The translations under genes and the position numbers were made by a program. A stretch of DNA of 38,448 nt. It comes from a virus. Taxonomy: Duplodnaviria > Caudoviricetes. The notes below the pieces were generated by a model. It did not search any database. It was given only the letters and a program-made list of their open reading frames with translations, and was not told where the DNA came from. The stretch spans positions 1 through 38,448 of IMG/VR virus record IMGVR_UViG_3300037313_000254. One strand, given 5' to 3'. This document shows positions 336-38,312 of this stretch, piece after piece (within the stretch, counting starts at the first letter, position 1; every line of letters begins with the position of its first letter).

Positions 336-875
336 TTATCGAATTCCTTTCACGTAGACCTTGCTCACACCGACCGGGATCGCACTTGTGAACGTTAGCG
401 TCGTGCCAGAAAGCAAATATTGGTCATCGCCTTGGAAGGCAGCGTCGAAGAAAACCCACAACTGCGCGGCATTGGCAAATGTGTTGCTGAGCGTCAGCGA
501 TGTCGTGACGCCAGGAGTAAAGTCCGAGCCGCTCGAAAACGTCTGATCAGCGATGCTGATGCCACCCGTCGATGACGAAGCGCCTATCGGCGCGAAGATC
601 ATTTCAAGTAGCGCGGCTTGCTGTGATCCAGACGCAAGCGTCGTTGCGTTCGGCTCAACATTCGGCGCATTGACAGACGTTGCAAAACTTTCTTCAAGTG
701 CCAGTACATCAGAAATCGTCAGAGACGTCGGTGTCGTGCCGCTGCTGCCTCCCGTACGGCGCCATAACTGAATCAGGAACAGGAACCATGCTTCCGTGAC
801 ATTGCCTGTCTTCGGATCGGTAAATGGCACATTGACCAGCGGCACATCGGTCTGGATAGTCGTCGCCATGGTCAT
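336..875 (-). CDS. Tail protein in the P22 gp26 position, with a C-terminal adaptor-like domain also found in the tailspike
   Basis: ATG at 875 overlaps the nozzle stop (ATGA); alternative ATG at 869. N-terminal P-F-T-D-P-K-T-G...W-F-L-F-L motif. C-terminal DFTPG...FFD..FQ.DD...LSGTTLTF...IPVGVS domain. Confidence 0.75.
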   Translation of the reverse strand: MTMATTIQTDVPLVNVPFTDPKTGNVTEAWFLFLIQLWRRTGGSSGTTPTSLTISDVLALEESFATSVNAPNVEPNATTLASGSQQAALLEMIFAPIGASSSTGGISIADQTFSSGSDFTPGVTTSLTLSNTFANAAQLWVFFDAAFQGDDQYLLSGTTLTFTSAIPVGVSKVYVKGIR

Positions 876-2784: not shown

Positions 2785-2829
2785 TTCACCTCCGGCTAAC
2801 ATAGAAATCACGATAAGCCGGAAGTAAAA
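2785..2829 (-). promoter_or_regulatory. RBS-sequestering hairpin of the HNH gene; the 5' arm is late motif copy 3 (2814-2828)
   Basis: Minus-strand UUUUACUUCCGGCU pairs with AGCCGGAGGUGAAA (14 bp, two G-U) and covers the SD up to the AUG. Confidence 0.75.
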
Positions 2830-2853: not shown

Positions 2854-3603
2854 TTACGGCCCACTCGACCCGAGGTACATATCCCCGTAAACGTTATAGG
2901 CGGCCGCCCTGTTCCCTCTCAAAGCGGCAGGCATCTGGAGAAGCGGAATCTGCGCATTCACCTCTTCGATGATGCGCATGGACGCCTCAGCTTTACCCTG
3001 CACGACCGGATTCACCGGCAAGCCGTAGAAAGGATAAAGCTCAAGCGTCAGGTTCCACATCAACGCAGCCGCATATTCGGGCGGAAGCGCGATCTGGTCA
3101 TTGATCGTCTGGAACTGCTGCAACTGCTGCATGACCGTGATGTCTATCTCGTACTGCGTGTTCGGGATCGGCCACACGAACAGATTCGCCATCGGATAGC
3201 CTGCGTCGTAGTAGGCATACCGTGGGAAAGCGTTCAGATCCTTGATCGAGATACGGTCGTAGTCCTCGCGCGCCTTCAGGATTTCGAGCGGATAGCTAAC
3301 CGGAAGCGGCGTGCTGGCGTTCTGGCGGAAGTAGGCGAATTCGAGCTTAGAGGGCCGTGCGACGTTGAAGTCGCCGCCCGGCCCCACCGTATAGGAAATT
3401 GCGCCCGTGGCCTGCTTTGATACCGTGATGAGTTGATAAACCATGTAACGACGGCGCTGCCATTGCGCCATCATCATATTCATCAGGTTGAAAGCATCAT
3501 TCATATCCTCCGCAGACGCGACCTGCCCCACGCCTACGACGTTGGCCGTCTTCAGCGCGAGATTGATGATGTCAGATGGCGTCTGCGGAGTCGGGACGGT
3601 CAT
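2854..3603 (-). CDS. Head-to-tail adaptor (P22 gp4-like)
   Basis: DIINLALK..NVVG.G...AEDMNDAF..MN.MM..W and LPPEYAAALMWNL.LEL.P.YG motifs. Lies between coat and nozzle. Confidence 0.82.
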   Translation of the reverse strand: MTVPTPQTPSDIINLALKTANVVGVGQVASAEDMNDAFNLMNMMMAQWQRRRYMVYQLITVSKQATGAISYTVGPGGDFNVARPSKLEFAYFRQNASTPLPVSYPLEILKAREDYDRISIKDLNAFPRYAYYDAGYPMANLFVWPIPNTQYEIDITVMQQLQQFQTINDQIALPPEYAAALMWNLTLELYPFYGLPVNPVVQGKAEASMRIIEEVNAQIPLLQMPAALRGNRAAAYNVYGDMYLGSSGP

Positions 3604-3604
3604 T

Positions 3605-4024
3605 TTAATGATTCGTCCAGTTGAACGTTCCGTTGCTGTTCGTGCACATCACCTGCACAGCCAGCGTGCCACCACCCGTCGCCGTTGCCGCATACACAGG
3701 GCTTGCAGCGCCATCCGTCTCTACTGCGATGAGGCCGGAACTCGACGCATTGCACGTCGGAAGCGTGGCATTCGTGAACTTCGCGGGCTGCATCTGGACC
3801 GAGTCCGAACGCTGCGTGCTCATTGACGTGGCGCAATACGGCAACGTCGAACCGACCGAGACGCCCGAGCCGTTGTAATACGTCGTGCCTTGCAGGAAAA
3901 ACGATCCGCACTGGTTGGTGATGGTCTGGAAGCCGTTGCTCGGGTTGAACTGCGCCTGAGCGGGCGAAATCAGCGCTGCGAACATGCCAACGCTGGCAAT
4001 GACTGCGAGAAGAACCTTTTTCAC
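3605..4024 (-). CDS. Signal-peptide-bearing, Cys-containing head spike/fibre-like protein (139 aa)
   Basis: GTG at 4024 overlaps the upstream TGA and has a CAGGAG SD. MKKVLLAVIASVGMFAALISPAQA|Q is a typical Sec/SPI signal. C-terminus LPTCNASSSGLIAVETDG...V.V.C..NG..NW. Confidence 0.7.
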   Translation of the reverse strand: MKKVLLAVIASVGMFAALISPAQAQFNPSNGFQTITNQCGSFFLQGTTYYNGSGVSVGSTLPYCATSMSTQRSDSVQMQPAKFTNATLPTCNASSSGLIAVETDGAASPVYAATATGGGTLAVQVMCTNSNGTFNWTNH

Positions 4025-4290
4025 GATTTGCACTCCTGTTCGGAAATCATCTGTTTGAGTTTCTCGACGCCTGTCTTGTGATGCGGATTCAGTCCGAGAG
4101 CTTTCGCCTGATCCATCAACGCGTCCCGCAGTTGATCGACGCTCTGTGAGTCGGCCGATTCCTGGCCGATTGCTGCGTCTTCCTCTTCCCGGCTGTTGAC
4201 CACCAGACCGGAACCGTCTGCCAGCGTGACCCACTTCGGGTACTCCACGAAGACATACGGAGCGGTGAAATTGCGCATGTTCGGGTACAT
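4021..4290 (-). CDS. Hypothetical head-module protein (EYPKWV motif, short helical C-terminal domain)
   Basis: GGGAG SD, follows the coat terminator, translationally coupled to the next gene. Confidence 0.75.
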   Translation of the reverse strand: MYPNMRNFTAPYVFVEYPKWVTLADGSGLVVNSREEEDAAIGQESADSQSVDQLRDALMDQAKALGLNPHHKTGVEKLKQMISEQECKS

Positions 4291-4301
4291 CGAAAACTCC
4301 C

Positions 4302-4328
4302 AAAAAGGAGCCGGGAATCTCCCGGCCC
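4302..4328 (-). terminator. Rho-independent terminator after the coat gene
   Basis: GGGCCGGGA-GAT-TCCCGGCTC followed by CTTTTT on the minus strand. Confidence 0.8.
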
Positions 4329-4352
4329 AAGCACCACCCGGAGGAGACCCGG

Positions 4353-5558
4353 TTAGAGAACGTCAGCGACTGCAACGGCCCATTCCGGACGAATGGCCGC
4401 GAAGCCATACAGCACGTCCAGACGGGTGATCAGGTTGTCGCTCATCACGTCATACGCGGTGATCATCCGCATTGCGCAGCCGTCGAACTCCGCGCGCGCA
4501 GCCTCCACCACGCCACTCGTCGGCATTTCCATGTCGGCGGTCGCGAGCGTGAAGGCTTCGGGGTAGAACGCGAGGTTCTGGCGGTACTTCGTGCTTGCGG
4601 GGAGAACCAGCGCGATCGCTGCGCCGTTGGCGGGCGATGCTGTGACCGTGTTGAATGCGGCCGGCGCCGGAACGATTGCCGGGTAAATCGGGATCGACGT
4701 CGCACCGTTGGCGACGTTTGCCGTCACCACGAACTGACGCAACTGGCCCTGATCCTGACCCGTCAGGCGGTTGATACCGTTCACGCCAGCGATGGTGATG
4801 ATGTCGCCCGCGTTGAACGTGCCGGTGATGGCGTTGACCGTCAGCGTGTTGCCCGTCTGGTTCGCGCCGTTGACCGTACCACCCGCCGAGAACGTACCGT
4901 TCGTGTGGATCTGCACCGTCTGATCGCGATACCAGTCGAAGCCGAGCGTATCGGTCGTGATCATGCCCGTCTCGTACTGATCCGCGATCTTGCGTTGCGG
5001 ATTGAACAGACCGGCCAGCGACGTGACCGTGCGCGCTTCGGTCAACAGGTCGAGGATGATCGTGCGGTCCATGCCCGGCGCAAGGTTGAAGCCGAGCTTC
5101 GCGCCCGCATCCAGCCACGTACCAGCGTCCGGCGAGATCAGGTTGCCGCCGCCGTCCTGCTTGAATGACAGATTCGACGCAGCATTCGACACGCTGATCA
5201 GGTCGCCGGCCATCGATGCGGCCAGACGGTTGATCGCAGGAGCGAGAATGCGCTCGCTGTAGTCGTCGAGCGACATCGTCTTTTCAGCCGTGCCGAAGGC
5301 GACAGGAACGTTCTTCTGCGTCGCGACGGTCAGCGTCGTGTTCTGCTCGTTCGTGCCCTGCGGCGTGATAGCCGGTCCGTTACCGACGATGTAATCGTTC
5401 GGCAGACGGATACGCAGCGTGTTACCAATCTTCGCGCCGGTGCGTGCGAATTGGTCGTCGTACTGGCGATTGACGCGGCGAAGGAAGGCGTTGGTCTGCG
5501 AGAACAGACGCACCGCCTCGTTGGTGATCTGATTGATCGTCAGCAATGAATTTGCAAT
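4353..5558 (-). CDS. Major capsid protein (P22 coat family), probable ATT start
   Basis: (M)ANSLLTINQITNEAVRLF...QYDDQFARTGAKIGNTLRIRLP N-terminus and RLDVLYGFAAIRPEWAV C-terminus. SD GAGGA lies 7 nt before ATT at 5558. Confidence 0.92.
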   Translation of the reverse strand: MANSLLTINQITNEAVRLFSQTNAFLRRVNRQYDDQFARTGAKIGNTLRIRLPNDYIVGNGPAITPQGTNEQNTTLTVATQKNVPVAFGTAEKTMSLDDYSERILAPAINRLAASMAGDLISVSNAASNLSFKQDGGGNLISPDAGTWLDAGAKLGFNLAPGMDRTIILDLLTEARTVTSLAGLFNPQRKIADQYETGMITTDTLGFDWYRDQTVQIHTNGTFSAGGTVNGANQTGNTLTVNAITGTFNAGDIITIAGVNGINRLTGQDQGQLRQFVVTANVANGATSIPIYPAIVPAPAAFNTVTASPANGAAIALVLPASTKYRQNLAFYPEAFTLATADMEMPTSGVVEAARAEFDGCAMRMITAYDVMSDNLITRLDVLYGFAAIRPEWAVAVADVL

Positions 5559-5762
5559 TTTGGGTTCCTCTCTGAGGTTAAGTGTCAGAAAAATCAACAC
5601 GCTTGCCGGGTACACAAGCGGGCCTAAGCCCTTAACCCCGAAACCCTCGCTAGCTGGCGATACAGATCAGATTGACGGCTCTGAATGGCCTATGGTCACG
5701 AAGGAAGCGCTTAAATTGCCCCTTTCGGTGAGCCAAAGGGTAAGCCGGAAGTAAATTCCGGC
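5559..5762 (-). ncRNA. Candidate structured cis-regulatory leader of the coat gene (four-way junction 5562-5646 plus upstream hairpins)
   Basis: Helices read by eye: GGGUUUC/GGAACCC, GGGGUUAA/UUAACCUC, GGGC/GCCC, GCUUG/CAAGC, GUGUUG/UGACAC. Also UCGC/GCGA, CCCUUU/AAAGGG and GCCGGAA/UUCCGGC. Confidence 0.65.
5741..5755 (-). promoter_or_regulatory. Late regulatory motif copy 2 (TTTACTTCCGGCTTA)
   Basis: Identical to 2814-2828 and one mismatch from 12017-12031. All three copies are intergenic and in the same orientation. Confidence 0.7.
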
Positions 5763-5777
5763 CACCTATTTCTGAGA

Positions 5778-6497
5778 TCAACGGCGACGCGCGTTCTTGT
5801 TACGCCACGCCAGCCACTTCTTGGTATCGCTCGGATCAGGCTCGGTGCTGTCTTCAGCGCCACTCCGCCCGTCGAGCGCATCGATCGGCGGCGGCGCCTT
5901 GCTGATCTGCTTGCTTAGAGACTTTGCGGCTTTCGGCGCGAGCTTCATCATTTCAATGGCCATCTGCGTCGGTTCGAGTGAAGCGATACGCATGGCCTCG
6001 TTGATGTTCTCGCTCTTGCCGAGGTACGTAACCAGCTTCTCTGCGCCATCAATTGAGGTGAGAACTTTCAGGAAGTCGAGTCCACCGATCCCAGCCATGT
6101 TCAGATTCTGCGTGGCCTTGTCGAAATCCTCGCCGAATTCCTTGGCACCCGCCTCGTTGATGGCCGTGATGCGCTGGTTCAGCGTGCTCTGCGCGGTCTC
6201 TTCGGCAACCATGCGCTTTGCGTATGCCTTCGCCAGCTCTTCCACGGACTGATTGGATTGCGGCGCTTGTTGCGGCTGCTGGCCTTCCGTCGGTTGCGGC
6301 TGTTGGCGTGCTCGCGCGAGTTCGGCCTCGAGTTCAGCGACACGCGCTTCTGCCGCGCGGCGGGCTGCGGTGATCTCACTGATGCGCTTCGGCACCCATG
6401 AGGTATCAGGCCGCTGCTCGGTCTGCTGCTGTTCTACCTGCTCCGTTTCGGTCTGTTGTTCGACCTGTTGCTGCTGTTCTGCCTGCACGTCGCTCAT
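5778..6497 (-). CDS. Capsid scaffolding protein
   Basis: Between portal and coat. Q/E-rich coiled coil (KRISEITAARRAAE), SKAPPPI motif, basic C-terminal helix W.AWRNK..RRR. Confidence 0.85.
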   Translation of the reverse strand: MSDVQAEQQQQVEQQTETEQVEQQQTEQRPDTSWVPKRISEITAARRAAEARVAELEAELARARQQPQPTEGQQPQQAPQSNQSVEELAKAYAKRMVAEETAQSTLNQRITAINEAGAKEFGEDFDKATQNLNMAGIGGLDFLKVLTSIDGAEKLVTYLGKSENINEAMRIASLEPTQMAIEMMKLAPKAAKSLSKQISKAPPPIDALDGRSGAEDSTEPDPSDTKKWLAWRNKNARRR

Positions 6498-8668
6498 TGT
6501 TGCTCTCCGGTGGTTTGTGTTTCTACGGGTGCCAGTACGTTCTGAATGCCTGCGGCGTATAGGTTCGCCGGGTCTGCGTTATCAGGCTGGATTCCGGCGT
6601 CGGGATTGGGTGCGCGCAGGATTTCGGCCAGCGCCTTGCGGATGATCGGCTCCAGCGCCCCTTCTCCCATTGCTGGAACGATTGCCTTTAACCGGTCTGT
6701 CTCCGCCTTGAACGCATCGAGAATTGACCTGTTGTCATTTTCCATGCGAAGCGCGAGATGGTTCAGTGCATCCATGTCGACTCGCTTCTCCTGAAGCTGA
6801 TGCTCTATCGTCTTGTCGGCAAGCTGTTGTTGCAGATGCTGGATCAGGCCAGCAGCAGCCTTGAGTTGCTGATCCATCTGCTGGACCTGCGGATCAACCT
6901 CACCAAGCACCGCCGGATTCGTCGCCTTGATCCAGTTGCGCACGCGCTCCATGAGCTTGTCGGCAGCCGGGAAGTCGGCTGTGCCCATATACAGATCGCC
7001 GATGACGTTCGAAAGCTGCGGCTGCGCTGCCAAGAGTTGTGTCATTGCGTCGAATGCCTTCTCGCGGCGAGTGTCGAAGTTCGGGCCGCATTTGGCGATG
7101 ACATCGTACTTGCCCACTGCCGGATTGAAGATAGACGATGCTTGCGCTTCCCCCGCATCCGATTGCTGGTCAAGCGGCTTCTTTGATTCCGGATCGATCT
7201 GGATCTGATGTTCTTCCCCATCCTCGGCGCGGATGCGCAGCACGCGTTTCGTATCGTAGATCTTCGGGATCAGGTCAACCAACTGAACGCCAGTGAACCG
7301 GATCGCGTCAGCCATCCCATCCTGGAAGTGGAACGTAACCCGGCTGCCCTGCTTCTGGCGCTGCTCAATTGCTACACCACTGACTTCATTGCCCTGCTCG
7401 CTGAATGTAGCCTCGTACTGGCCCGAGGCCATCATCAGCTCATGCTCGGCAGCTTGCATGCCTTCCATGAAAACCGGAGCGCTCGATGGCGGCTGCTGTC
7501 GCGTTGGCTGAGGGATAGGATTCCCGTTCTCGTCCGCGTGGTTATAGGGCAGGTACGAATGATTCTGCGTATTCGCTGTCGCCCAGTAGTTCTCCAGCCC
7601 TTCGATGGCTTCGACAGGTGCTGTGTAAGGAGACTTCGACTGCAGCGCACCATATTCCAGCGCGGCTGACGCGTTGTAATTGAACGCGCGTTGAGCATCT
7701 TTCAGATAACGGACGAGGCCCTTGCGATCAAGCCGGTTCTCAATAACGACTTCCTCGCCAACCGCGCGGATGATCGGTATGTACTTTCCAGCCCATGTTG
7801 ATTGATCCTTGATCTCATCTCCGACGATCAGATACCACTGCACGCCGAACTTCGGCACGCGGCGACGCTGCGCTTTTCCCTCCTCCATCGCCCTGCCGAA
7901 CAGGTCGCGGTTCTCCGCAGGCAGATCCGACTCGCGAACAAGCGTGATCGATCCATCGTCACCCTCGATCGCATACAACCATTCCTTCGATTCCTCGCGC
8001 TCATAATATTCGGCCACGCGGATCGAATCCTTACGTGTCCAGGCTAGCTCGCCTTCGCCCATGACTGCTTTGCCGGCCAGTTTCCCGTATTTCTTCTCGG
8101 CCTGATCACGCGGCATATCATCAAAGATGAATGCAAACCGCGCATCCGATCCGTCTTTCTTTTTGATATGCGGGTCCATGTAGACCGACAACGGGTCATT
8201 CACAGGCCGGATGAAGATTTCCTGATCAAAACTGTCGTCGTCGACATAATCAGTGACGATGCGCCAGTAGCCGATGCCCCCACCAACCTGAAATTCCATC
8301 GCCTTCGAATAAGCTGCCTGAGCGTCCGAGATGTATTCGATGCGCCGGATGATCTGTTCGAAGACCTGTGCACTCTCGTATGTTGCCTCATCGCCGGTCG
8401 CGCTGATCTGGACTGATGGCTTGTTCTCCTTGCCCTCATTGACAACGTGCAGCCAGTGCGTGTGGGTCTTGTTGATCGTCACCATCGGCTGGCCGGCGAG
8501 TTGGCGCTGTGCTCGCACTGCAGCATTCCACTGGTCGCCATTATCGGGGTCAGCATACAAAAACCGAATGTCGTCCTTAAAACGACTCCGGGCATCAGAC
8601 TCCCACTCAACAGCAGCCGCGAATCGGTCGTGCGCCCTTTTGATAACGTCTTTTTTGCGCTCAGCCAT
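6494..8668 (-). CDS. Portal protein (P22 gp1-like)
   Basis: 724 aa. GDQW...TINK, GGIGYWRI..DY, W.GKYIPII, GLVR.LKDAQR..NY and SGVAI..RQ motifs. Confidence 0.93.
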   Translation of the reverse strand: MAERKKDVIKRAHDRFAAAVEWESDARSRFKDDIRFLYADPDNGDQWNAAVRAQRQLAGQPMVTINKTHTHWLHVVNEGKENKPSVQISATGDEATYESAQVFEQIIRRIEYISDAQAAYSKAMEFQVGGGIGYWRIVTDYVDDDSFDQEIFIRPVNDPLSVYMDPHIKKKDGSDARFAFIFDDMPRDQAEKKYGKLAGKAVMGEGELAWTRKDSIRVAEYYEREESKEWLYAIEGDDGSITLVRESDLPAENRDLFGRAMEEGKAQRRRVPKFGVQWYLIVGDEIKDQSTWAGKYIPIIRAVGEEVVIENRLDRKGLVRYLKDAQRAFNYNASAALEYGALQSKSPYTAPVEAIEGLENYWATANTQNHSYLPYNHADENGNPIPQPTRQQPPSSAPVFMEGMQAAEHELMMASGQYEATFSEQGNEVSGVAIEQRQKQGSRVTFHFQDGMADAIRFTGVQLVDLIPKIYDTKRVLRIRAEDGEEHQIQIDPESKKPLDQQSDAGEAQASSIFNPAVGKYDVIAKCGPNFDTRREKAFDAMTQLLAAQPQLSNVIGDLYMGTADFPAADKLMERVRNWIKATNPAVLGEVDPQVQQMDQQLKAAAGLIQHLQQQLADKTIEHQLQEKRVDMDALNHLALRMENDNRSILDAFKAETDRLKAIVPAMGEGALEPIIRKALAEILRAPNPDAGIQPDNADPANLYAAGIQNVLAPVETQTTGEQQ

Positions 8669-9155
8669 GGTAGAAGGCTCCGTGCGTCATTTGGGCAGCT
8701 AGTTCATATATCTCGCTGGCTTCTTCAGGCGTCGAGTAGTAACCCAGCGATTTTTGGATAGTCTTCCCGGCACGTCGATCGAAAAAGGACATGCGCGCTT
8801 GATACTTTCCATTTGGGTATAGACGCACTCCTCGAAAGCCGAGGGGATTCGGCCATTTGGCGTTCTTCATATTCTCTGCATGCGTAGCGCGACGCAGATT
8901 AATTAACCTGTTATCGCTTCGGCAGCGATTTTCATGGTCGATTTCGTGCAGTGGGTGACTGCCATGCACATAAATCCATGCCAGAACATGCGCCATATAG
9001 CGCTTCCCAAAAATACCAATGCGCACATATCCGGTGTCTTTATCAACGCTCCCGGCCTCTGAGCCTGCCAATTTCCCGCCTGTGGTCTTCTTCCAGTGGA
9101 ATTTGCCCGAAACGGCATCGTACGAGAGGATCTCTCTGAGTTGATCTTGTCTCAT
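8661..9155 (-). CDS. Free-standing HNH homing endonuclease with AP2-like C-terminal domain
   Basis: LSYD..SGKF.W, AH.LAW.Y.HG.....IDH.N...DNR..NLR.AT..EN, then GFRGV...KYQAR...LGYY.T.EEA. Overlaps both terL and portal. Confidence 0.92.
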   Translation of the reverse strand: MRQDQLREILSYDAVSGKFHWKKTTGGKLAGSEAGSVDKDTGYVRIGIFGKRYMAHVLAWIYVHGSHPLHEIDHENRCRSDNRLINLRRATHAENMKNAKWPNPLGFRGVRLYPNGKYQARMSFFDRRAGKTIQKSLGYYSTPEEASEIYELAAQMTHGAFYHG

Positions 9156-11135: not shown

Positions 11136-11580
11136 TGCTGAACCCGTAGGTGAAGGAGACGCGGATTGAGCCGGCCGTGAGTGCAACGCTGTTTGCAACC
11201 TGGATCGTGTCGCCCGGCTGGGAGCATGCAAAGAAGGCGCCCGGCGCATTGGTCTGGCGGATCACCGTTGGTTGAGCAGGCGTAGCAGGCGTGTTCGGAA
11301 TGTACGAGCGAAGCAGAGCGACCGTTTCACCGCCGTTCACCGTCGTCAGCGTCGTGTTGATCATGCCGGCCGCGCCGATCGTTGCAATCGGATCGATCGT
11401 GATCTGGATGCCGATGATGAATCCGTATTTGCCAGCAGGAACAGTCAGGACGGTCTGAGGCGTCGTGCCTGATCCCGAGTTGAGCGTCACAGCTGCGTAT
11501 TTGCTCGCGATGAACTGCGAGACGAGCTGGCGAGGATTGCCTTGTGGGTCAACGAACTGGACAGAGATGCCTTGGCTCAT
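11116..11580 (-). CDS. Beta-sandwich, probably virion decoration protein (154 aa)
   Basis: T/V/G-rich, TVLTVPAGK...PGDTIQV pattern resembling the 1-335 protein. ATGA-coupled. Confidence 0.65.
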   Translation of the reverse strand: MSQGISVQFVDPQGNPRQLVSQFIASKYAAVTLNSGSGTTPQTVLTVPAGKYGFIIGIQITIDPIATIGAAGMINTTLTTVNGGETVALLRSYIPNTPATPAQPTVIRQTNAPGAFFACSQPGDTIQVANSVALTAGSIRVSFTYGFSNVAIGN

Positions 11581-11792
11581 TTCTTTTTCCCCTTCCCGAG
11601 GATGCGATCGGCCTTGGCGTCGATCTTGGCCTTGGACGACGACGACAACTTGCCCTTGTGCTCCATCTCGCTAGCACGGGCTTTTGCGTTCCGTGCGTGG
11701 CTTTTGTCGGGCATTGGATAAGCGCGCTTCCCCGGTTCGCCGAATTCCGACTTCGGCAAGGACTTGCGCGCCTTCGTCGTGAGCTTGCTCAC
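11577..11792 (-). CDS. Small basic protein, DUF6582-like
   Basis: GTG at 11792. LTTKARKSLPKSEFG.P..RAYPMPD.SHARNA.AR motif. Confidence 0.7.
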   Translation of the reverse strand: MSKLTTKARKSLPKSEFGEPGKRAYPMPDKSHARNAKARASEMEHKGKLSSSSKAKIDAKADRILGKGKKK

Positions 11793-11965
11793 TTGCTCGT
11801 CCCGCGAATCTTCATAACGGGAACGCCGTTGAGCTTGTACGGAACAGGCTTGGGACCTGCCGGCGGCATGCCACCGTGATAGGTGCCAGCAGGAGCCGTG
11901 CGCGCGCCGTGTGCGCAACCAGCCGCTTTCTTCATGTCCGCGCCGTCTTTGAGTCCACCAGCCAT
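11789..11965 (-). CDS. Hypothetical basic protein (58 aa), probable first late gene
   Basis: GGAG SD before ATG at 11965; coupled to the next gene. Confidence 0.65.
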   Translation of the reverse strand: MAGGLKDGADMKKAAGCAHGARTAPAGTYHGGMPPAGPKPVPYKLNGVPVMKIRGTSK

Positions 11966-12016: not shown

Positions 12017-12031
12017 TAAGCCGGTAGTAAA
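12017..12031 (-). promoter_or_regulatory. Late regulatory motif copy 1 (TTTACTACCGGCTTA) at the head of the late operon
   Basis: 14/15 identical to the copies at 5741 and 2814. Followed by hairpin CCGCC-ATCG-GGCGG and a T-run. Confidence 0.65.
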
Positions 12032-15011: not shown

Positions 15012-15926
15012 TCATTCCCGATCCTCGGCCGAAACATCCGCCCAATCCGTCCCGACCTTCGCCGGGATCAGAACGTCCTCGATCTTGATGCCGCGCATAG
15101 ACAGTTTCGAAGCCAGCGAATATGCGGCGTTCTGCCCCGCATAGCTCGCGTCGTTGTCACCGAATATCAGAACCTGCTCGACCCCGGCCGGCGCTTCCCA
15201 TTGCTGCATCCCGTTCGCCGAAATAGCAGCCCATACAGGAAGGTCAAACATAGAAGACGCAGCAAGTGCCGTCTCGATGCCTTCGGCAATACCAATGCGA
15301 GCAGCAACAGGAGACAGACGCACAGCGCCCGTTTTGATAGGCCCAGCCATGACTTTCTTCGCATCTTCGATCGGTGCCTTCCCGCCCTTTCCGTCCAGCC
15401 ATGTGCGATGAAGATTTGTTGGCGTGCCGTCGGGCATCGTCACGAGCGCCAGCATTGCCGGGAACGAATGTTCCTTGTCGTAGAAGAGATTCGGGTGAAG
15501 CCTGAGCGACTTCGGCACCGACTTGATGCCAGAGCGTTTGACCAGGTATTCCCAAACCTTGTCGCCACGAATAACGGGCGTCGCTTCCTTCCACACGCGG
15601 CGAATAGCCTGGCGCTTCTTCTCGTCCGGGAACTCGTGCTTTTCATCAACGTTTGAAAGGCCAAGCACACGCTCTACTTCGCGTGCGGCCTGCGGGAACT
15701 TCCATCCATTCAGTTTCAGGATCAGGCCGAAGCCGTCGCCAGAACCGCAATGGCTGCAAAACCATGAACCACGACCACCTTTGTTGTCCCACCTGTACCG
15801 GTCCTTGCCGCCGCAGATCGGACATGGGCCGTGCTTGTTTTCAAGGAAGTTTTCAGCGACGCCCAGCGACAGCAGGATCGAGCGCCAGCGCCCAACGCAC
15901 AGATCACCGATGGATTCACGCTGCAT
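15012..15926 (-). CDS. DNA primase (P4 alpha-type Zn ribbon + Toprim)
   Basis: HGPCPICGGKDRYR.D...G.WFCSHCG.GDG, IAEGIETAL and IFGDND...GQ motifs. Confidence 0.92.
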   Translation of the reverse strand: MQRESIGDLCVGRWRSILLSLGVAENFLENKHGPCPICGGKDRYRWDNKGGRGSWFCSHCGSGDGFGLILKLNGWKFPQAAREVERVLGLSNVDEKHEFPDEKKRQAIRRVWKEATPVIRGDKVWEYLVKRSGIKSVPKSLRLHPNLFYDKEHSFPAMLALVTMPDGTPTNLHRTWLDGKGGKAPIEDAKKVMAGPIKTGAVRLSPVAARIGIAEGIETALAASSMFDLPVWAAISANGMQQWEAPAGVEQVLIFGDNDASYAGQNAAYSLASKLSMRGIKIEDVLIPAKVGTDWADVSAEDRE

Positions 15927-19493: not shown

Positions 19494-19556
19494 ATGTCTA
19501 CGCCCTTCGTAATCCCACATAACCGCATGCTGCGCGATGCGACCTGGAGTATCTGA
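19494..19556 (+). pseudogene. 20-codon mini-ORF, probable orphaned N-terminus of the gene at 20036
   Basis: GGAG SD, first ORF after PL. MSTPFVIPHNRMLRDATWSI* aligns with MSTIPLVINKTMKYGEWIF. Confidence 0.6.
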
Positions 19557-19557
19557 G

Positions 19558-20034
19558 ATGCGCCAGATTCCTTTGTCGAAAGGGCGTGTCGCGCAGGTTG
19601 ACGATGAAGACTACGAGAGCTTGATTGGGTTCAACTGGTACTTCAACGACAACGGTCGAGGCTACGCAGTACGGGCGATTTACCAGCCAGCAACGAAGAC
19701 CAGCTACACGCAGAAGATGCACCGCCAGATCATGGGATTGGTTAGAGGCGATGGACTAGAAGTCGACCACATCGACGGCAACACCCTCAACAACAGCCGA
19801 TCGAATCTTCGAATTTGTACTCATGCCGAGAACATGCGGAACATTCGTCTCCGATCGGATAACAAGTCCGGACTGAAGGGCGCCTATCGGCATGGTAATA
19901 AGTGGGCGGCCTATATACGGCTGAACGGGAAAACCCGATTTCTTGGTTATTTCGGTACTGCTGAAGAGGCGCATACGGCATATCGGAAGGCGGCTGATGA
20001 ACTTCATGGCGAATTTGCCAATTACGGAGCATGA
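19558..20034 (+). CDS. Free-standing HNH-AP2 homing endonuclease
   Basis: IPLSKG..A.VDDEDY, MHRQIM......VDHIDGN.LNN.RSNLR.CT..EN, then SGLKG...W.A.I...LGYF.TAEEA..AY...A..LHGEFA. Confidence 0.93.
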   Translation: MRQIPLSKGRVAQVDDEDYESLIGFNWYFNDNGRGYAVRAIYQPATKTSYTQKMHRQIMGLVRGDGLEVDHIDGNTLNNSRSNLRICTHAENMRNIRLRSDNKSGLKGAYRHGNKWAAYIRLNGKTRFLGYFGTAEEAHTAYRKAADELHGEFANYGA

Positions 20035-30001: not shown

Positions 30002-31843
30002 TTAGAAACCGACGACCTCGTACCAGAAATCTGTCGCTGTGGCCGAGCCGTTGTTAAAATTGACTTGCGTGCCAGTCCACGTCGCGCTGAACGGCGAAAC
30101 CGACGAGCCATGAGGCGTCATCTGGATACTGCTGATACCAGTTGATACGGTGATACCGGCCGGAAGAGAAACGCCCGTTGTTGAATTGCCCGCTATGGTA
30201 ACCAGACCATAGACGTGGAATCGACCATTGGAGTCTACGTACCAGTTCGCGCCCGCGCTGAGTGTATCTTTCCGATTGCCAATCGATCCTTGATAGTTAG
30301 ATGACCAATAGAAAACAGAATTTGGACCGATGATCGGGTCGGGCGGCCCATTGCCCTTGTCATAAAAGAGGACGCTGTTATAGACCGAGGGGAACGTGCC
30401 GCGCTCGGTACCAGCCGCATAGACGCCGCCAGCACCCGGCGAAAGGTTGATGAACATGTTGCTCGCGGCGGGGACGGTGGAGGCGGTTGTCGAATCTAGC
30501 AATACACCGATGCCAGTTCCCGTCCCGCGAACCATCTGCACGGTCTCGAAGAGGTTGTTATCTGAACTGAGCATCCAGATTGCCGCTGTGATGTTGGCGT
30601 ATAGTGCCTTGATCAGCTTGAACTGGTTGAACGAGACATTTGCTGTCGCCGAGCCGCCGCACAGCAGGATCGAACCGCCACCGCCAGCCACCTGACGACC
30701 GCGAAGGCTGATCTCATTGCGCTGCGTATCTGCGGCCTCAGTCAGCGTCGTCAGGACGTTCATATCCATCATTGCGATGGTGAATTCCGAACCGGAGAAA
30801 TCGTAGACACCATCGCAGGATGAGCGCAGCGAAACACCGCGTCCTGCTCCATTCGCGATCAGGAAAATGCCCCGGAAGCCATTGCCGCGCAGTGCGCGCG
30901 CCGCTGTCGCTGTCGGCTGGATCTGGAACATGTCTCCGTTGACGGCACCTGTCCACTGGATGACAGTCGCGGCGTTGTTGCCGGTTCCGCTGTCGTGCGA
31001 GTCACCGTGACCTGCGCCGAGAATCTGGATGTCGCTGTTGTTGATGACTACTGTATTGCTCAATGTCCATTGCTGCGCTGACGGCGGGATGATGACAGTG
31101 CCACCATTGACCGAAGTCAGATAGGCAATAGCAGAATTCAACGGCGCATATAGGTCACCGCCAACTGTCGCACCGAAATCAAGCACCGAAACGATATCCG
31201 CCAGCTTGCTCTGAACCGTGCGCGAGACGGATCCCGCAGACGGGAAAAGAAATGCCAGTTTGTTACTCTGGATGCCAGCATTGAATGCGACCGTCGCGTC
31301 AGTGACGGAACTGTTTGCAGGCGTTCCAACTGGCAATGTCGAGCCAATCTTAACGGTCACTTCCGACACGCCAACGGGAATCGGGGATGAGAACGTGAGC
31401 GTCGTTCCGCTCAACGAAATCGCGTCGTCCGTCTGGTAGACGCCATCGAAGTAAATCCATGTATTGCTGACGGTGCCAGGGCTGACGGTCAGCGGGAGCT
31501 GAGTCGTAGTACCAGGCGTGAAGTCGGCGGGAGCATGAAAAAGGTTATCAACCATGTTCCCAATGAGGCCGCCGCTGGTATCCTCAGTGATCTTATCCCA
31601 GATAAGATTGCCGAACTGGTCATAGACAACCTGACGGTAGACACCGTTGCCCCAGATGACTGCTTGACCCGACGCATCAAGAACCACCGGGTTCGTATTC
31701 AGGATGGTTTGTCCAGCATCCTGCCACGTATTCTTGAACGTGGTCGTGTTGGGGATATAGAAGTAAACTGAGCCCCCGGCAAGCGGCTTGCCATTGCTGT
31801 CTATAAACTGCTGTTTTGCATTCGGCAGTAGAGTAGCCGTCAT
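30002..31843 (-). CDS. Tailspike (particle-binding N-terminus, beta-helix depolymerase-like body, C-terminal tip domain)
   Basis: QFIDSNGKPLAGG.VYFY...T...N.NPVVLD..G head-binding domain; RTVQSKLADIVSVLDFGA neck; GGTVIIP beta-helix start; W.VDSNG...YG...WYEVVGF tip. Confidence 0.88.
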   Translation of the reverse strand: MTATLLPNAKQQFIDSNGKPLAGGSVYFYIPNTTTFKNTWQDAGQTILNTNPVVLDASGQAVIWGNGVYRQVVYDQFGNLIWDKITEDTSGGLIGNMVDNLFHAPADFTPGTTTQLPLTVSPGTVSNTWIYFDGVYQTDDAISLSGTTLTFSSPIPVGVSEVTVKIGSTLPVGTPANSSVTDATVAFNAGIQSNKLAFLFPSAGSVSRTVQSKLADIVSVLDFGATVGGDLYAPLNSAIAYLTSVNGGTVIIPPSAQQWTLSNTVVINNSDIQILGAGHGDSHDSGTGNNAATVIQWTGAVNGDMFQIQPTATAARALRGNGFRGIFLIANGAGRGVSLRSSCDGVYDFSGSEFTIAMMDMNVLTTLTEAADTQRNEISLRGRQVAGGGGSILLCGGSATANVSFNQFKLIKALYANITAAIWMLSSDNNLFETVQMVRGTGTGIGVLLDSTTASTVPAASNMFINLSPGAGGVYAAGTERGTFPSVYNSVLFYDKGNGPPDPIIGPNSVFYWSSNYQGSIGNRKDTLSAGANWYVDSNGRFHVYGLVTIAGNSTTGVSLPAGITVSTGISSIQMTPHGSSVSPFSATWTGTQVNFNNGSATATDFWYEVVGF

Positions 31844-31871
31844 TTTTATGCACCCGAAGCGAGGAACACGT

Positions 31872-31891
31872 GCAGCGCGCCGGCGCGCTGC
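31872..31891. repeat. Perfect 20-bp palindrome GCAGCGCGCCGGCGCGCTGC
   Basis: Read directly; intergenic, upstream of the tailspike. Confidence 0.8.
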
Positions 31892-31951
31892 CTGTCTCTG
31901 CCCTCGAGAGACTCTTTAACGGGCGACTACCGCCGATAGGTTGGCTAGACC

Positions 31952-32137
31952 ATGACAACAGCACAACTCATTCACACCGCCTGCGTTTCGGCTGGCGTTT
32001 CAATCATCGCCATATGGCGCGACCTATCTGCTGCCAGAAAGAAGCGCCGGCAGACTCCCGGCTACGACTGGAGCGCCGAGACGGGATATCGCATTGCCTA
32101 TCGGCTGGGAAAACTGTGGGCGCGACGTCAGAAGTGA
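31952..32137 (+). CDS. Possible antisense small membrane protein (61 aa) in the P22 sieA position
   Basis: Hydrophobic N-terminus followed by RKKRR. Possible promoter TTTAAC-16 bp-TAGGTT just upstream. Overlaps the ejection gene by 114 nt. Confidence 0.35.
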   Translation: MTTAQLIHTACVSAGVSIIAIWRDLSAARKKRRQTPGYDWSAETGYRIAYRLGKLWARRQK

Positions 32138-36475: not shown

Positions 36476-36928
36476 TTAAAGCCATTTTTCGTACGTCGTC
36501 TCGACCGGCTGGAAGTCGAGAAACCTGAATAACGCCGACGCATCGTGCGCGACCTTGCTGCCGACTGCCCAACGTTGCACGCCACGGCGTTTCAGTTCCT
36601 TTTCAACAAAGCGGAACATGCGAATACCGGCAATGCTGGTGCGACGCTCTGGCGCCACATAGAAGATGTCCGGCGAGCACGTCAGGCAAGAACGGTAGTG
36701 CAACCCCGGCGCGATGAAACACACGAAATACGCGACGATTTGTCCGGCCTCTCGACCAATGACCATCATCAGAGACCCATCCTGCTCGCGCGCGCGGTAG
36801 ACCTCGACCATCGGATCAAGCGGGACGTCATGGTCAACGTGCGTTGAAATCTCGCCGTAATGCTCCGCCAACAATGGCAAAAGTTCGGTGTAGACCTGCG
36901 AGAAGGGTTCGATAGCGAAAGTGATCAT
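36476..36928 (-). CDS. GNAT-fold acetyltransferase (P22 gp14 / T7 gp13 position)
   Basis: DIFYVAPERR...G..MF..VE.ELK.RGV...LF..L.F...E..Y.K acetyl-CoA motif A/B pattern. Confidence 0.82.
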   Translation of the reverse strand: MITFAIEPFSQVYTELLPLLAEHYGEISTHVDHDVPLDPMVEVYRAREQDGSLMMVIGREAGQIVAYFVCFIAPGLHYRSCLTCSPDIFYVAPERRTSIAGIRMFRFVEKELKRRGVQRWAVGSKVAHDASALFRFLDFQPVETTYEKWL

Positions 36929-37506
36929 CGCGAAGTCCTGATGTCGACGACCATCGAAATCCGGTCGCTCGCGCTGTTGTTCACCACCTCATGGACCTGG
37001 CTGTTGTCGAACCAGAAACAGTCGCCCGTCGTCATGCTGATCTGTTCGTCTCCACATTTCAGGATCGCGCCCGGCAACCCTTGCAGGACTACATGAAACC
37101 GCGTGTAGTAGCGCGTCTGCTCTGGCGTGTCGGCATGCGCGAAGATGCGCCCACCAGGGATGATCTTGTTGATCATCACCCGTCCTAGACGCTCGCCTGC
37201 GACGCGCGCCATGAGATTCATCACGATCGGACGAGCCTCATGCAACAGCTTGTACGACGGGTAATCAACCGCTTCGTACTGGTCGTAACCGGCAAGCTGG
37301 TTCTGCTTGTACAACTCGATCTGTTCTTCGGTCAGGCCTTCCACCTTCTCCGGGAAGCGAAGCATGATCGTTTCGGTCTCGCCAAACGGACCCTGCGGAT
37401 AATGGCGAAGGAACGTGTCTTCCTTCCACAACTCCGGACGGCGTTTGATGGCGAGAACGAGCGGATTGACATCTACCCCGCTTGCTAGAAGGTGGAAATT
37501 TCGCAT
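36925..37506 (-). CDS. 2OG-Fe(II) dioxygenase, aspartyl/asparaginyl beta-hydroxylase family
   Basis: PGGRIFAHAD (HxD), RFHVVL, WFDNSQVHEVVN (distal H), R.SMVVD. Confidence 0.87.
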   Translation of the reverse strand: MRNFHLLASGVDVNPLVLAIKRRPELWKEDTFLRHYPQGPFGETETIMLRFPEKVEGLTEEQIELYKQNQLAGYDQYEAVDYPSYKLLHEARPIVMNLMARVAGERLGRVMINKIIPGGRIFAHADTPEQTRYYTRFHVVLQGLPGAILKCGDEQISMTTGDCFWFDNSQVHEVVNNSASDRISMVVDIRTSR

Positions 37507-37850: not shown

Positions 37851-38312
37851 TTAGCTCCCTGAATAATTCGAAAATTCACCGTGTAATTCCAGCGCTGCTC
37901 GCTTGTACGCTTCACTGGCCTGCTCATGAGTATCGAAAGAGCCTAAATACTTCCGATGCCCCCTGAAGGCGATTCGTGCCCGCCACCTCTTCCCATCCTT
38001 CGTTAGGCATACGCCTTTCGATTTACTCTTGCTGCGTCTGTTATGCGCGTTCTCTTCAGCCGTGCACAAACGTAGATTTGATCGTCGGTTATCTGATCTA
38101 TCTCCATTGACGTGATCCACTTCCATCGGATCGCCGTGTCCTAAACCGAGCAACAGTCGATGCATTCCCAAAGTAAAAAATCCGCCGTCTGGATGGCGCA
38201 TGTTTGTCGATGCATAACCATTTGATCCGATATGCCACGTATAGCCTGCGATCAGATCAAGGTCCGCTTCATCGATCCAGAAAGATCGTCCTTTTTTATC
38301 GTGAATTTTCAT
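37851..38312 (-). CDS. Free-standing HNH-AP2 homing endonuclease
   Basis: MHRLLL......VDHVNG.RSDNRRSNLR.CT.EEN, then KGV....RWRARI...YLGSF.T.E.A..AY..AALELHGEF. Lower GC than its neighbours; ATG overlaps the upstream TGA. Confidence 0.93.
   Translation of the reverse strand: MKIHDKKGRSFWIDEADLDLIAGYTWHIGSNGYASTNMRHPDGGFFTLGMHRLLLGLGHGDPMEVDHVNGDRSDNRRSNLRLCTAEENAHNRRSKSKSKGVCLTKDGKRWRARIAFRGHRKYLGSFDTHEQASEAYKRAALELHGEFSNYSGS

Follow-up and report, generated by a model that had tools for sequence, protein, structure and literature searches.

The leader of the coat protein gene in a P22-like podophage genome very probably belongs to a family of tandem-pseudoknot leaders that is uncatalogued in Rfam and that recurs ahead of several phage late genes. 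The four-way junction into which this leader also folds is real and above chance, but it is a lineage-specific rival fold of the tandem-pseudoknot leader and not the conserved unit.

The DNA analysed here, referred to as the window, is a stretch of 38,448 nucleotides that constitutes the complete 38.4-kb record of the phage, with terminase, portal, scaffold and coat encoded on the minus strand (Table 1). Its nearest named relatives are prophages of Cupriavidus, Paraburkholderia, Pigmentiphaga and Achromobacter, and as these are of Burkholderiales type we infer a Burkholderiales host. The window also holds four free-standing HNH endonuclease genes (2284-2811, 8661-9155, 19537-20034 and 37851-38312), cupin/beta-hydroxylase-like and GNAT-like genes between the head-closure and ejection genes (36476-37506, minus strand), and a basic 71-aa ORF (11577-11792, minus strand) with a weak DUF6582 match, assigned to phrog_16160 and present in 6 of 13 relatives. 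A sequence-only reading of this DNA had placed about 220 non-coding nt between scaffold and coat genes, and 219 nt were measured from the scaffold stop codon (5780-5778) to the coat start. Such a spacer was said to be unusual for P22-like phages, which is true in comparison with PAE2, whose coat is 63% identical to that of the window and whose scaffold-coat spacer is only 6 nt, but not within the window's own clade, where a long spacer is the norm.

Table 1. Coordinates of the features discussed, in the window unless another locus is named
Feature	Position	Strand	Evidence or remark
P22-like coat protein gene, 401 aa from AUU	4353..5558	-	PF11651, E 2e-34; phrog_283
Shine-Dalgarno 5570-5566, 7-nt spacer, AUU start codon 5558-5556	5556..5570	-	codon position as in relatives
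Four-way junction, predicted OFF fold	5562..5646	-	MFE fold; same fold in L116
Junction basal helix	5646-5640 with 5568-5562	-	
Junction closing helix	5639-5632 with 5581-5574	-	
Junction hairpins	5631-5620, 5619-5601, 5600-5582	-	
Junction bulge	5573-5569	-	
PK2, predicted ON fold	5601..5640	-	descriptor match; compensatory changes
PK2 stem 1	5640-5637 with 5610-5607		
PK2 loop GUUAA	5636-5632		
PK2 inserted hairpin	5631-5620		
PK2 stem 2	5619-5615 with 5605-5601		
Inserted hairpin between PK1 and PK2	5647..5660	-	common to L051, L116, L253
PK1, H-type pseudoknot	5667..5690	-	MI-APC, double-sided changes; compensatory differences from L116
PK1 stem 1	5690-5688 with 5679-5677		
PK1 stem 2	5684-5680 with 5671-5667		
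PK1 A-rich loop GUCAA	5676-5672		
Variable 5' hairpin, not separable from chance	5697..5730	-	z -0.85; relatives' hairpins differ in sequence
Putative internal promoter	5737..5765	-	weak -35 at 5765-5760, -10 at 5742-5737, inferred +1 at ~5729
Scaffolding protein gene	5778..6497	-	phrog_8865, E 3.5e-13
58-aa ORF, candidate trans factor	11789..11965	-	first gene after the promoter-like element at 12017-12031
Canonical PK1-PK2 copy (31956-31892) and RBS-pairing 3' part, before tailspike gene 30002-31843	31844..31956	-	CM R1
Motif in L367 (G006, 12.3 kb)	4717-4782	-	PK1 doubled
Motif in L368 (G007, 18.8 kb, terminal repeats)	11429-11494	-	TerS-like gene in the element
tRNA(CCU), L380 (G014)	15721-15795	-	between the 58-aa gene and terminase
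tRNA(CCU), L549 (G023)	2919-2994	-	Pigmentiphaga soli prophage
tRNA(CCU), L550 (G022)	676-752		P. daeguensis prophage
tRNA(CCU), L440	2876-2950		
tRNA(CCU), L448	688-764		

The four-way junction had been described in the sequence-only reading with the correct sequence and coordinates, as minus-strand RNA from 5646 to 5556 folds exactly in this way, with an MFE of -37.5 kcal/mol, a centroid identical to the MFE structure and a mean pairing probability of 0.97 for the MFE pairs. None of 200 shuffled sequences was equally stable (z -3.85), and the plus strand of the same region reached a z of only -1.39. The accompanying claim that the junction buries the Shine-Dalgarno (SD) was half right: the GGA of GAGGA is paired, whereas its GA lies in the bulge with a pairing probability of 0.02-0.03. 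Opening the coat ribosome-binding site (RBS) costs 7.2 kcal/mol, inside the range of 2.7-10.3 found for 16 other genes of the same genome. Three more hairpins had been noted upstream; one of them overlaps a promoter-like DNA element that precedes the likely +1 (~5729), and the other two correspond to stem 2 of the conserved pseudoknot PK1 and to an inserted hairpin shared with three relatives.

Conservation of the junction is narrow. It is not kept in a set of 80 coat-selected IMG/VR relatives, and among the genomes found it is carried by two only, the window and locus L116, in which 46 of 48 cells are paired over 24 counted pairs. One double-sided change occurs among these pairs, which is not above shuffles, so that the covariation proposed as a check on the junction was not significant. 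Pattern scans of viral sequences for further carriers yielded one real match of 32, and the same genome once among 119; a metagenome scan gave one real match of 85, a contig equal to that of L116 in length (40,242 nt) and in leader sequence, and comparison of the leader with four sequencing runs returned one identical contig and no new variant, the RNA run among them having no coverage of the leader. The coats of the window and L116 are 78% identical and lie apart on a 38-row tree, and the shared leader has therefore probably been spread by recombination. Inspection by eye places the end of an HNH-like gene directly upstream of the coat leader in L051, L084, L116, L419 and L423, and this gene may be a mobiliser of leader variants.

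The conserved element is instead a core of about 65 nt formed by two H-type pseudoknots in tandem, PK1 and PK2, which the sequence-only reading did not see. Among the coat-selected relatives it was present in each of the 77 whose leader is covered. Of the 80 loci in this set, CM R1, trained on 53 copies and with many of its matches being training sequences, matched 77, and the remaining three are without the leader; on nine distant coat loci and PAE2 it had no match. A MAFFT alignment, not fitted to structure, was made of 65 distinct copies (45 from coat and 20 from tailspike leaders), part of them found by the PK2 pattern itself; it left out nine motif-less loci with coats 35-52% identical, and four insertion-bearing copies, that of the window included, are partly misaligned in it. 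Over the 17 PK1-PK2 pairs of this alignment 90.8% of the cells were paired and 13 pairs had double-sided changes, a level of covariation reached in none of 500 shuffles and by no slid control. Moreover, in a structure-blind MI-APC analysis of 61 copies, with the four insertion copies removed, the top four pairs all belonged to PK1 and came from both of its crossing stems. Double-sided changes across the 65 sequences affected all five stem-2 pairs of PK1 and one of its three stem-1 pairs. Covariation support for PK2 is limited to few variants or lineages, since most of its pairs are near-invariant.

PK1 and PK2 are built alike, each having the 3' strand of a stem followed by GUNAA and a single purine ahead of a 5-bp stem, and it is attractive to regard PK2 as a possible circular permutation of PK1. 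PK1 is duplicated in tandem before PK2 in the coat leaders of L062 and L072, and a PK1 duplication also occurs in L307. At the gathering score of Rfam 15 there was no match in the whole window or in 20 related loci; the coat leader had none at E<=10, so that no known family was matched, and the tailspike copy gave just two sub-threshold chance matches. The twister, pistol and HDV ribozymes were rejected as counterparts on topology and absent Rfam matches. With conservation, covariation, no Rfam match and a likely +1 upstream of 5646, the earlier proposal that the coat start carries a cis-regulatory RNA not described before gains support; such a unit exists, with the tandem pseudoknot and not the junction as its conserved part. 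Another structured-looking coat leader, alike in three prophages of acetic acid bacteria (L089, L090 and L092), lies about 170 nt before the coat start; the coat identity of these phages is about 50%, and R1 has no match in their coat leaders.

In the window, PK1 with its GUNAA loop is found at 5690-5667. PK2 was located with a descriptor that fixes a GUYAA loop, stems of 4 and 5 bp and linkers of 4 and 1 nt with no further sequence, and that matched exactly two sites in the window, at 5640 and 31924, against two in 60 shuffled windows. Seven of the nine PK2 pairs of the coat leader are altered on both sides with respect to the family consensus. The flipped CGGG-GUUAAG occupies the exact place of GCCC-GUUAAG in L051 and L253, and the matching flipped strand lies in the loop of what had been described as the second junction hairpin, with the spacing seen in the family. 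Owing to this stem flip and to insertions, the sequence-based CM R1 fails to score the coat copies of the window and L116. The closing helix of the junction uses the 5' strand of PK2 plus its GUUAA loop, so that junction and PK2 are mutually exclusive. The loop bases that form stem 1 are identical in the window and L116, although the adjacent loop base differs.

The element is not confined to coat genes. A canonical copy precedes the window's tailspike gene, whose protein matches tailspike head-binding domains at its N-terminus (E 3e-5 to 2e-4); this copy, absent from the training set, scored 56 bits with CM R1 (E 8e-14). In the window and several relatives a small opposite-strand ORF begins at the 5' edge of this motif (31952). 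PK1-PK2 was found before the tailspike in 8 of 13 related phage genomes, before a holin-like gene in one genome and before an unidentified reading frame in another; ahead of the window's scaffold gene, R1 and the descriptor found no copy. Two capsid-less, satellite-like elements, G006 and G007, bear it before their own ejection-protein operon; their gene content comprises integrase, primase/helicase, GNAT and DNA-ejection proteins, and one of them may be a fragment. Four of five host genomes searched had matches, seven in total, and those that could be placed sit at prophage positions.

We then considered access to the RBS. In most canonical copies the nested MFE fold is a long hairpin that pairs both halves of PK2 with the RBS, and opening the RBS costs at least 3 kcal/mol in all 65 copies. 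Holding out PK2 reduced this cost by 2 kcal/mol or more in 54 of the 65 copies, with the median going from 11.0 to 4.7; a control block in its place did so in just four of 65. Cognate PK2/RBS duplexes were better than swapped ones (-1.73 against a within-class null of -0.18 +/- 0.27, uncorrected for relatedness). As a family trait, the rival fold joins the PK2 strands directly to the SD, and PK2 relieves it. The coat leader of the window does not share this trait: holding out the PK2 strands in the nested model released the SD neither in the window (7.2-8.8 to 7.3 kcal/mol) nor in L116 (4.3-5.2 to 4.9), because the basal helix engages the linker that lies 5' of PK2, and hairpins arise locally. 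The cost reached 4.6 in the window only when the 6-nt linker was covered as well, and in L116 it was then still 6.2; in the window's tailspike copy it changed little (5.7 to 5.0). As ViennaRNA scores neither a pseudoknot nor a bound protein, these nested-model results neither demonstrate nor exclude switching. The OFF fold is predicted to lie about 13 kcal/mol below the fold with PK2 strands held out, pseudoknot energy not counted.

Transcription of the leader probably starts upstream of the junction. A 15-nt spacer/-10 element occurs three times on the minus strand of the window (2814-2828, 5741-5755 and 12017-12031) and in none of 100 shuffles, and it is also found at the late start and coat leader of G011. 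The consensus score of the coat-leader promoter is weak by itself (p 0.4), and a consensus promoter scan of positions 4000-7000 found none. Sigma70-like matches (p<=0.05) were detected in 21 of 44 leaders of coat genes but in none of 19 before tailspike genes. The likely +1 thus lies upstream of 5646, and not downstream of it, which would have counted against the leader RNA.

The coat start codon of the window is AUU, at the codon position where relatives have AUG, GUG or UUG. Among 48 distinct leaders there were 31 AUG, nine GUG, four UUG, two AUU and two AGG coat starts, the second AUU being that of L116. An assembly error was excluded by the AUU of L116 and by a 238-nt contig of another study that matches 5544-5781 without difference. 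We rejected an upstream in-frame GUG or UUG and the UUG at codon 5 as starts, since in L116 a stop lies 10 codons upstream and the corresponding position reads CUG. AUU initiation in E. coli amounts to 1-2% of AUG (10.1101/063800). No phage tRNA that could explain AUU was found in the window, where low-threshold calls fall inside genes and are noise-like.

AGG starts are a trait of some relatives. By heuristic start calls, they occur in 7 of 11 scored late genes of G014 and in 5 of 6 in each of the Pigmentiphaga prophages G022 and G023, at positions where relatives use AUG, GUG or UUG, and the genes include terminase, portal, coat, tail accessory, ejection and tailspike. In each of the three, the late region encodes an initiator-like tRNA whose anticodon is CCU and whose position 1:72 is unpaired; AGG starts are absent from all 15 genomes or loci that lack tRNA(CCU). 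Phage start-codon recoding is the likely meaning of this pairing of tRNA and starts. Two further loci, L440 and L448, have such a tRNA, and in L440 the scored starts are AUG. L441 carries a similar tRNA with CAU. The literature matches listed contain no description of AGG late starts with an initiator-like tRNA(CCU).

Among the window's non-virion ORFs, only the 58-aa ORF, which heads the late region, is common to nearly all 13 phage genomes. All 13 phage genomes and all five prophages that bear the motif have a homologue, and when 77 loci were collected through this ORF, all 44 that reached the coat start had the motif. Neither satellite had a match at E<=0.05, nor did PAE2 or seven genomes whose distant coats lack the motif. 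Motif-bearing phages all have coats more than 73% identical, and since one clade is set against outgroups the co-occurrence is confounded and constitutes a lead only. Satellites that carry the motif and lack the gene would fit a factor supplied in trans. The ORF, with 23 unnamed representatives, has no match in Pfam, PHROG or PDB, and Atlas leads were all under 0.9; its model is one helix with an extended tail at low confidence (pLDDT 64), in which no RNA-binding fold is seen. A GC-rich hairpin lies ahead of its RBS in at least five relatives. We regard the 58-aa ORF, from its distribution among genomes, as a candidate trans factor of the switch.

We propose, giving it about an even chance, that the leader acts as a rewired tandem-pseudoknot translational switch, with the junction as OFF state and PK2 held ON by a phage-encoded late factor. 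Of its parts, translational gating by the tandem-pseudoknot leader is likely, and the odds of activation by a dedicated phage factor are evenly poised. At equilibrium the RNA would adopt the four-way junction, PK2 being the ON fold. PK2 would be complete about 20 nt before the invading strand of the junction is transcribed, so that this strand would gain its toehold in the GUUAA loop and displace stem 1. A late phage product could bind the conserved PK1/GUUAA surface and block this displacement; the 58-aa ORF would be the lead candidate, and scaffold or another core protein could also serve. Leaky coat mRNA from the internal promoter would have to be restrained in translation, and the AUU start would serve as a second brake.

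A timer without a ligand is an unlikely alternative, in which the nascent RNA would fold PK2 first, giving a burst of initiation, and the junction would then silence older mRNA. The order of synthesis does put PK2 first, the OFF fold is the equilibrium fold, and the three-arm MS2 cloverleaf closed by an SD helix behaves in this manner (PMC4615214); such a timer leaves unexplained PK1, the near-invariant loop bases and PK2 sequence, and the reuse of the element by satellites, and coat is required in bulk, unlike the MS2 maturation protein. It is very improbable that the switch has decayed in this lineage to a static damper, with junction and AUU setting a fixed low initiation and PK2 a relic. 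The absence of modelled SD release and the restriction of the variant to two genomes with leaders of recent common ancestry are in its favour; seven double-sided changes have nevertheless restored PK2 in register, the stem-1 loop bases stay constant in both genomes while a neighbouring base varies, and PK1 still covaries.

The ligand could also be scaffold or coat protein itself, matching coat output to assembly, as the sequence-only reading suggested. Both core genes are present in 13 of 13 genomes, and we nonetheless hold this to be quite unlikely: the same element precedes tailspike, holin-like and satellite genes and has no copy before the scaffold gene, which weakens any coat- or scaffold-specific autoregulation. 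Action on transcription, as a put-like cis antiterminator, an attenuator or a 5' stabiliser at the start of a late transcript, has a very low probability. It could draw on the 21 coat copies less than 100 nt from a sigma70-like promoter, several at the likely +1, on the lack of a Q gene in the window genome, and on a hairpin with a U-rich tract in many copies, one terminator-like site (5620-5600) being at about chance level. However, all 65 copies end at the RBS, the U-rich tract is accounted for by PK2 pairing, and the promoter-proximal position expected of each copy of an element like the HK022 put antiterminator is lacking in the 19 tailspike copies. A small-molecule or ion riboswitch, compatible with a pseudoknot core, conserved loop bases and a variable expression platform, is scarcely likely for an element confined to late genes of phages and satellites, whose PK1 duplications look more like repeated protein sites. 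As for a packaging or assembly RNA, also put forward earlier, a stable multi-helix fold does adjoin head genes, but the element sits in mRNA leaders, non-head genes included, and contains the RBS, and the junction is unconserved; with no supporting evidence, this role is almost certainly wrong.

Compared with known systems, the leader does not have the full membership features of the MS2, the Com/mom or the gene 32 system. Its OFF topology is like that of the MS2 maturation 5' UTR (PMC4615214), in which three arms are closed by a long-distance helix holding the SD and an earlier fold is mutually exclusive with it. MS2, however, is an ssRNA phage in which the leader serves a low-copy gene, has no repeated copies and forms a hairpin as its transient fold, whereas the window's leader has a conserved pseudoknot as rival fold and only three of five SD bases paired. 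In its proposed logic the switch would resemble Mu Com/mom, where a small phage protein opens a structure that occludes the RBS of a late mRNA whose start is not AUG (PMC6483171). The operator there is a hairpin with one target, in contrast to a tandem pseudoknot with several targets in the window's group, and the window genome has neither a Com zinc-ribbon gene (PF10122) nor a gene of the Q family. The T4/T2 gene 32 operator likewise places an H-type pseudoknot in the leader of a phage gene, where a phage protein binds it (PMC3014915). It mediates autogenous repression over an unstructured RBS, whereas in the window's family the RBS is paired by default, being structured in all 65 copies, with the pseudoknot predicted to release it, and there are several unrelated targets.

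P22 gene 8 autoregulation has in common a P22-like head module and post-transcriptional control. It acts on the scaffold's own message (10.1101/2022.12.13.520362), whereas the present element follows the scaffold gene, precedes unrelated late genes and, by R1 and the descriptor, is absent from the scaffold 5' region. The window's family is like SAM-II and preQ1 riboswitches in combining a pseudoknot core with an exchangeable SD-sequestering platform. In those types the bound pseudoknot usually hides the SD; the window's family has no Rfam match and lacks a metabolic gene context. A 103-nt candidate before a P22 coat, DNAVirus_7287, is listed for 48 host-associated gut sequences and called a terminator in PMC10690425; on a comparison by table rows alone, its identity with the window's family is unlikely. 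The main text of PMC5737381 names no coat or capsid motif, and among the matches listed in a full-text literature search there was no description of a tandem-pseudoknot coat or tailspike leader. What the present analysis adds is the flipped PK2 variant and its competing fold, the junction, together with the coat start at AUU, the occurrence in satellites and the 58-aa ORF as a candidate factor.

Late-gene timing in tailed phages is usually ascribed to transcription, through Q, late sigma factors or phage polymerases. If the proposed model is true, an RNA switch present in several copies and governed by a trans activator would amount to a translational late regulon. A broader version, which we hold only tentatively and rate as rather doubtful, is that a single small phage peptide flips switches on coat, tailspike and lysis mRNAs, late genes thus being timed by translation; satellites would copy the switch and with it sense the helper, the window's lineage would have re-engineered it through inverted stems, a strand-displacement junction and AUU, and sister phages would add an AGG gate with an initiator-like tRNA. 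In any case, the window copy is a natural compensatory mutant with a new expression platform, ranks among the strongest evidence for PK2 as a real structure and offers a ready orthogonal switch. Moreover, AUU on a major capsid gene, together with AGG and tRNA(CCU) in relatives, suggests repeated start-codon control in this phage group.
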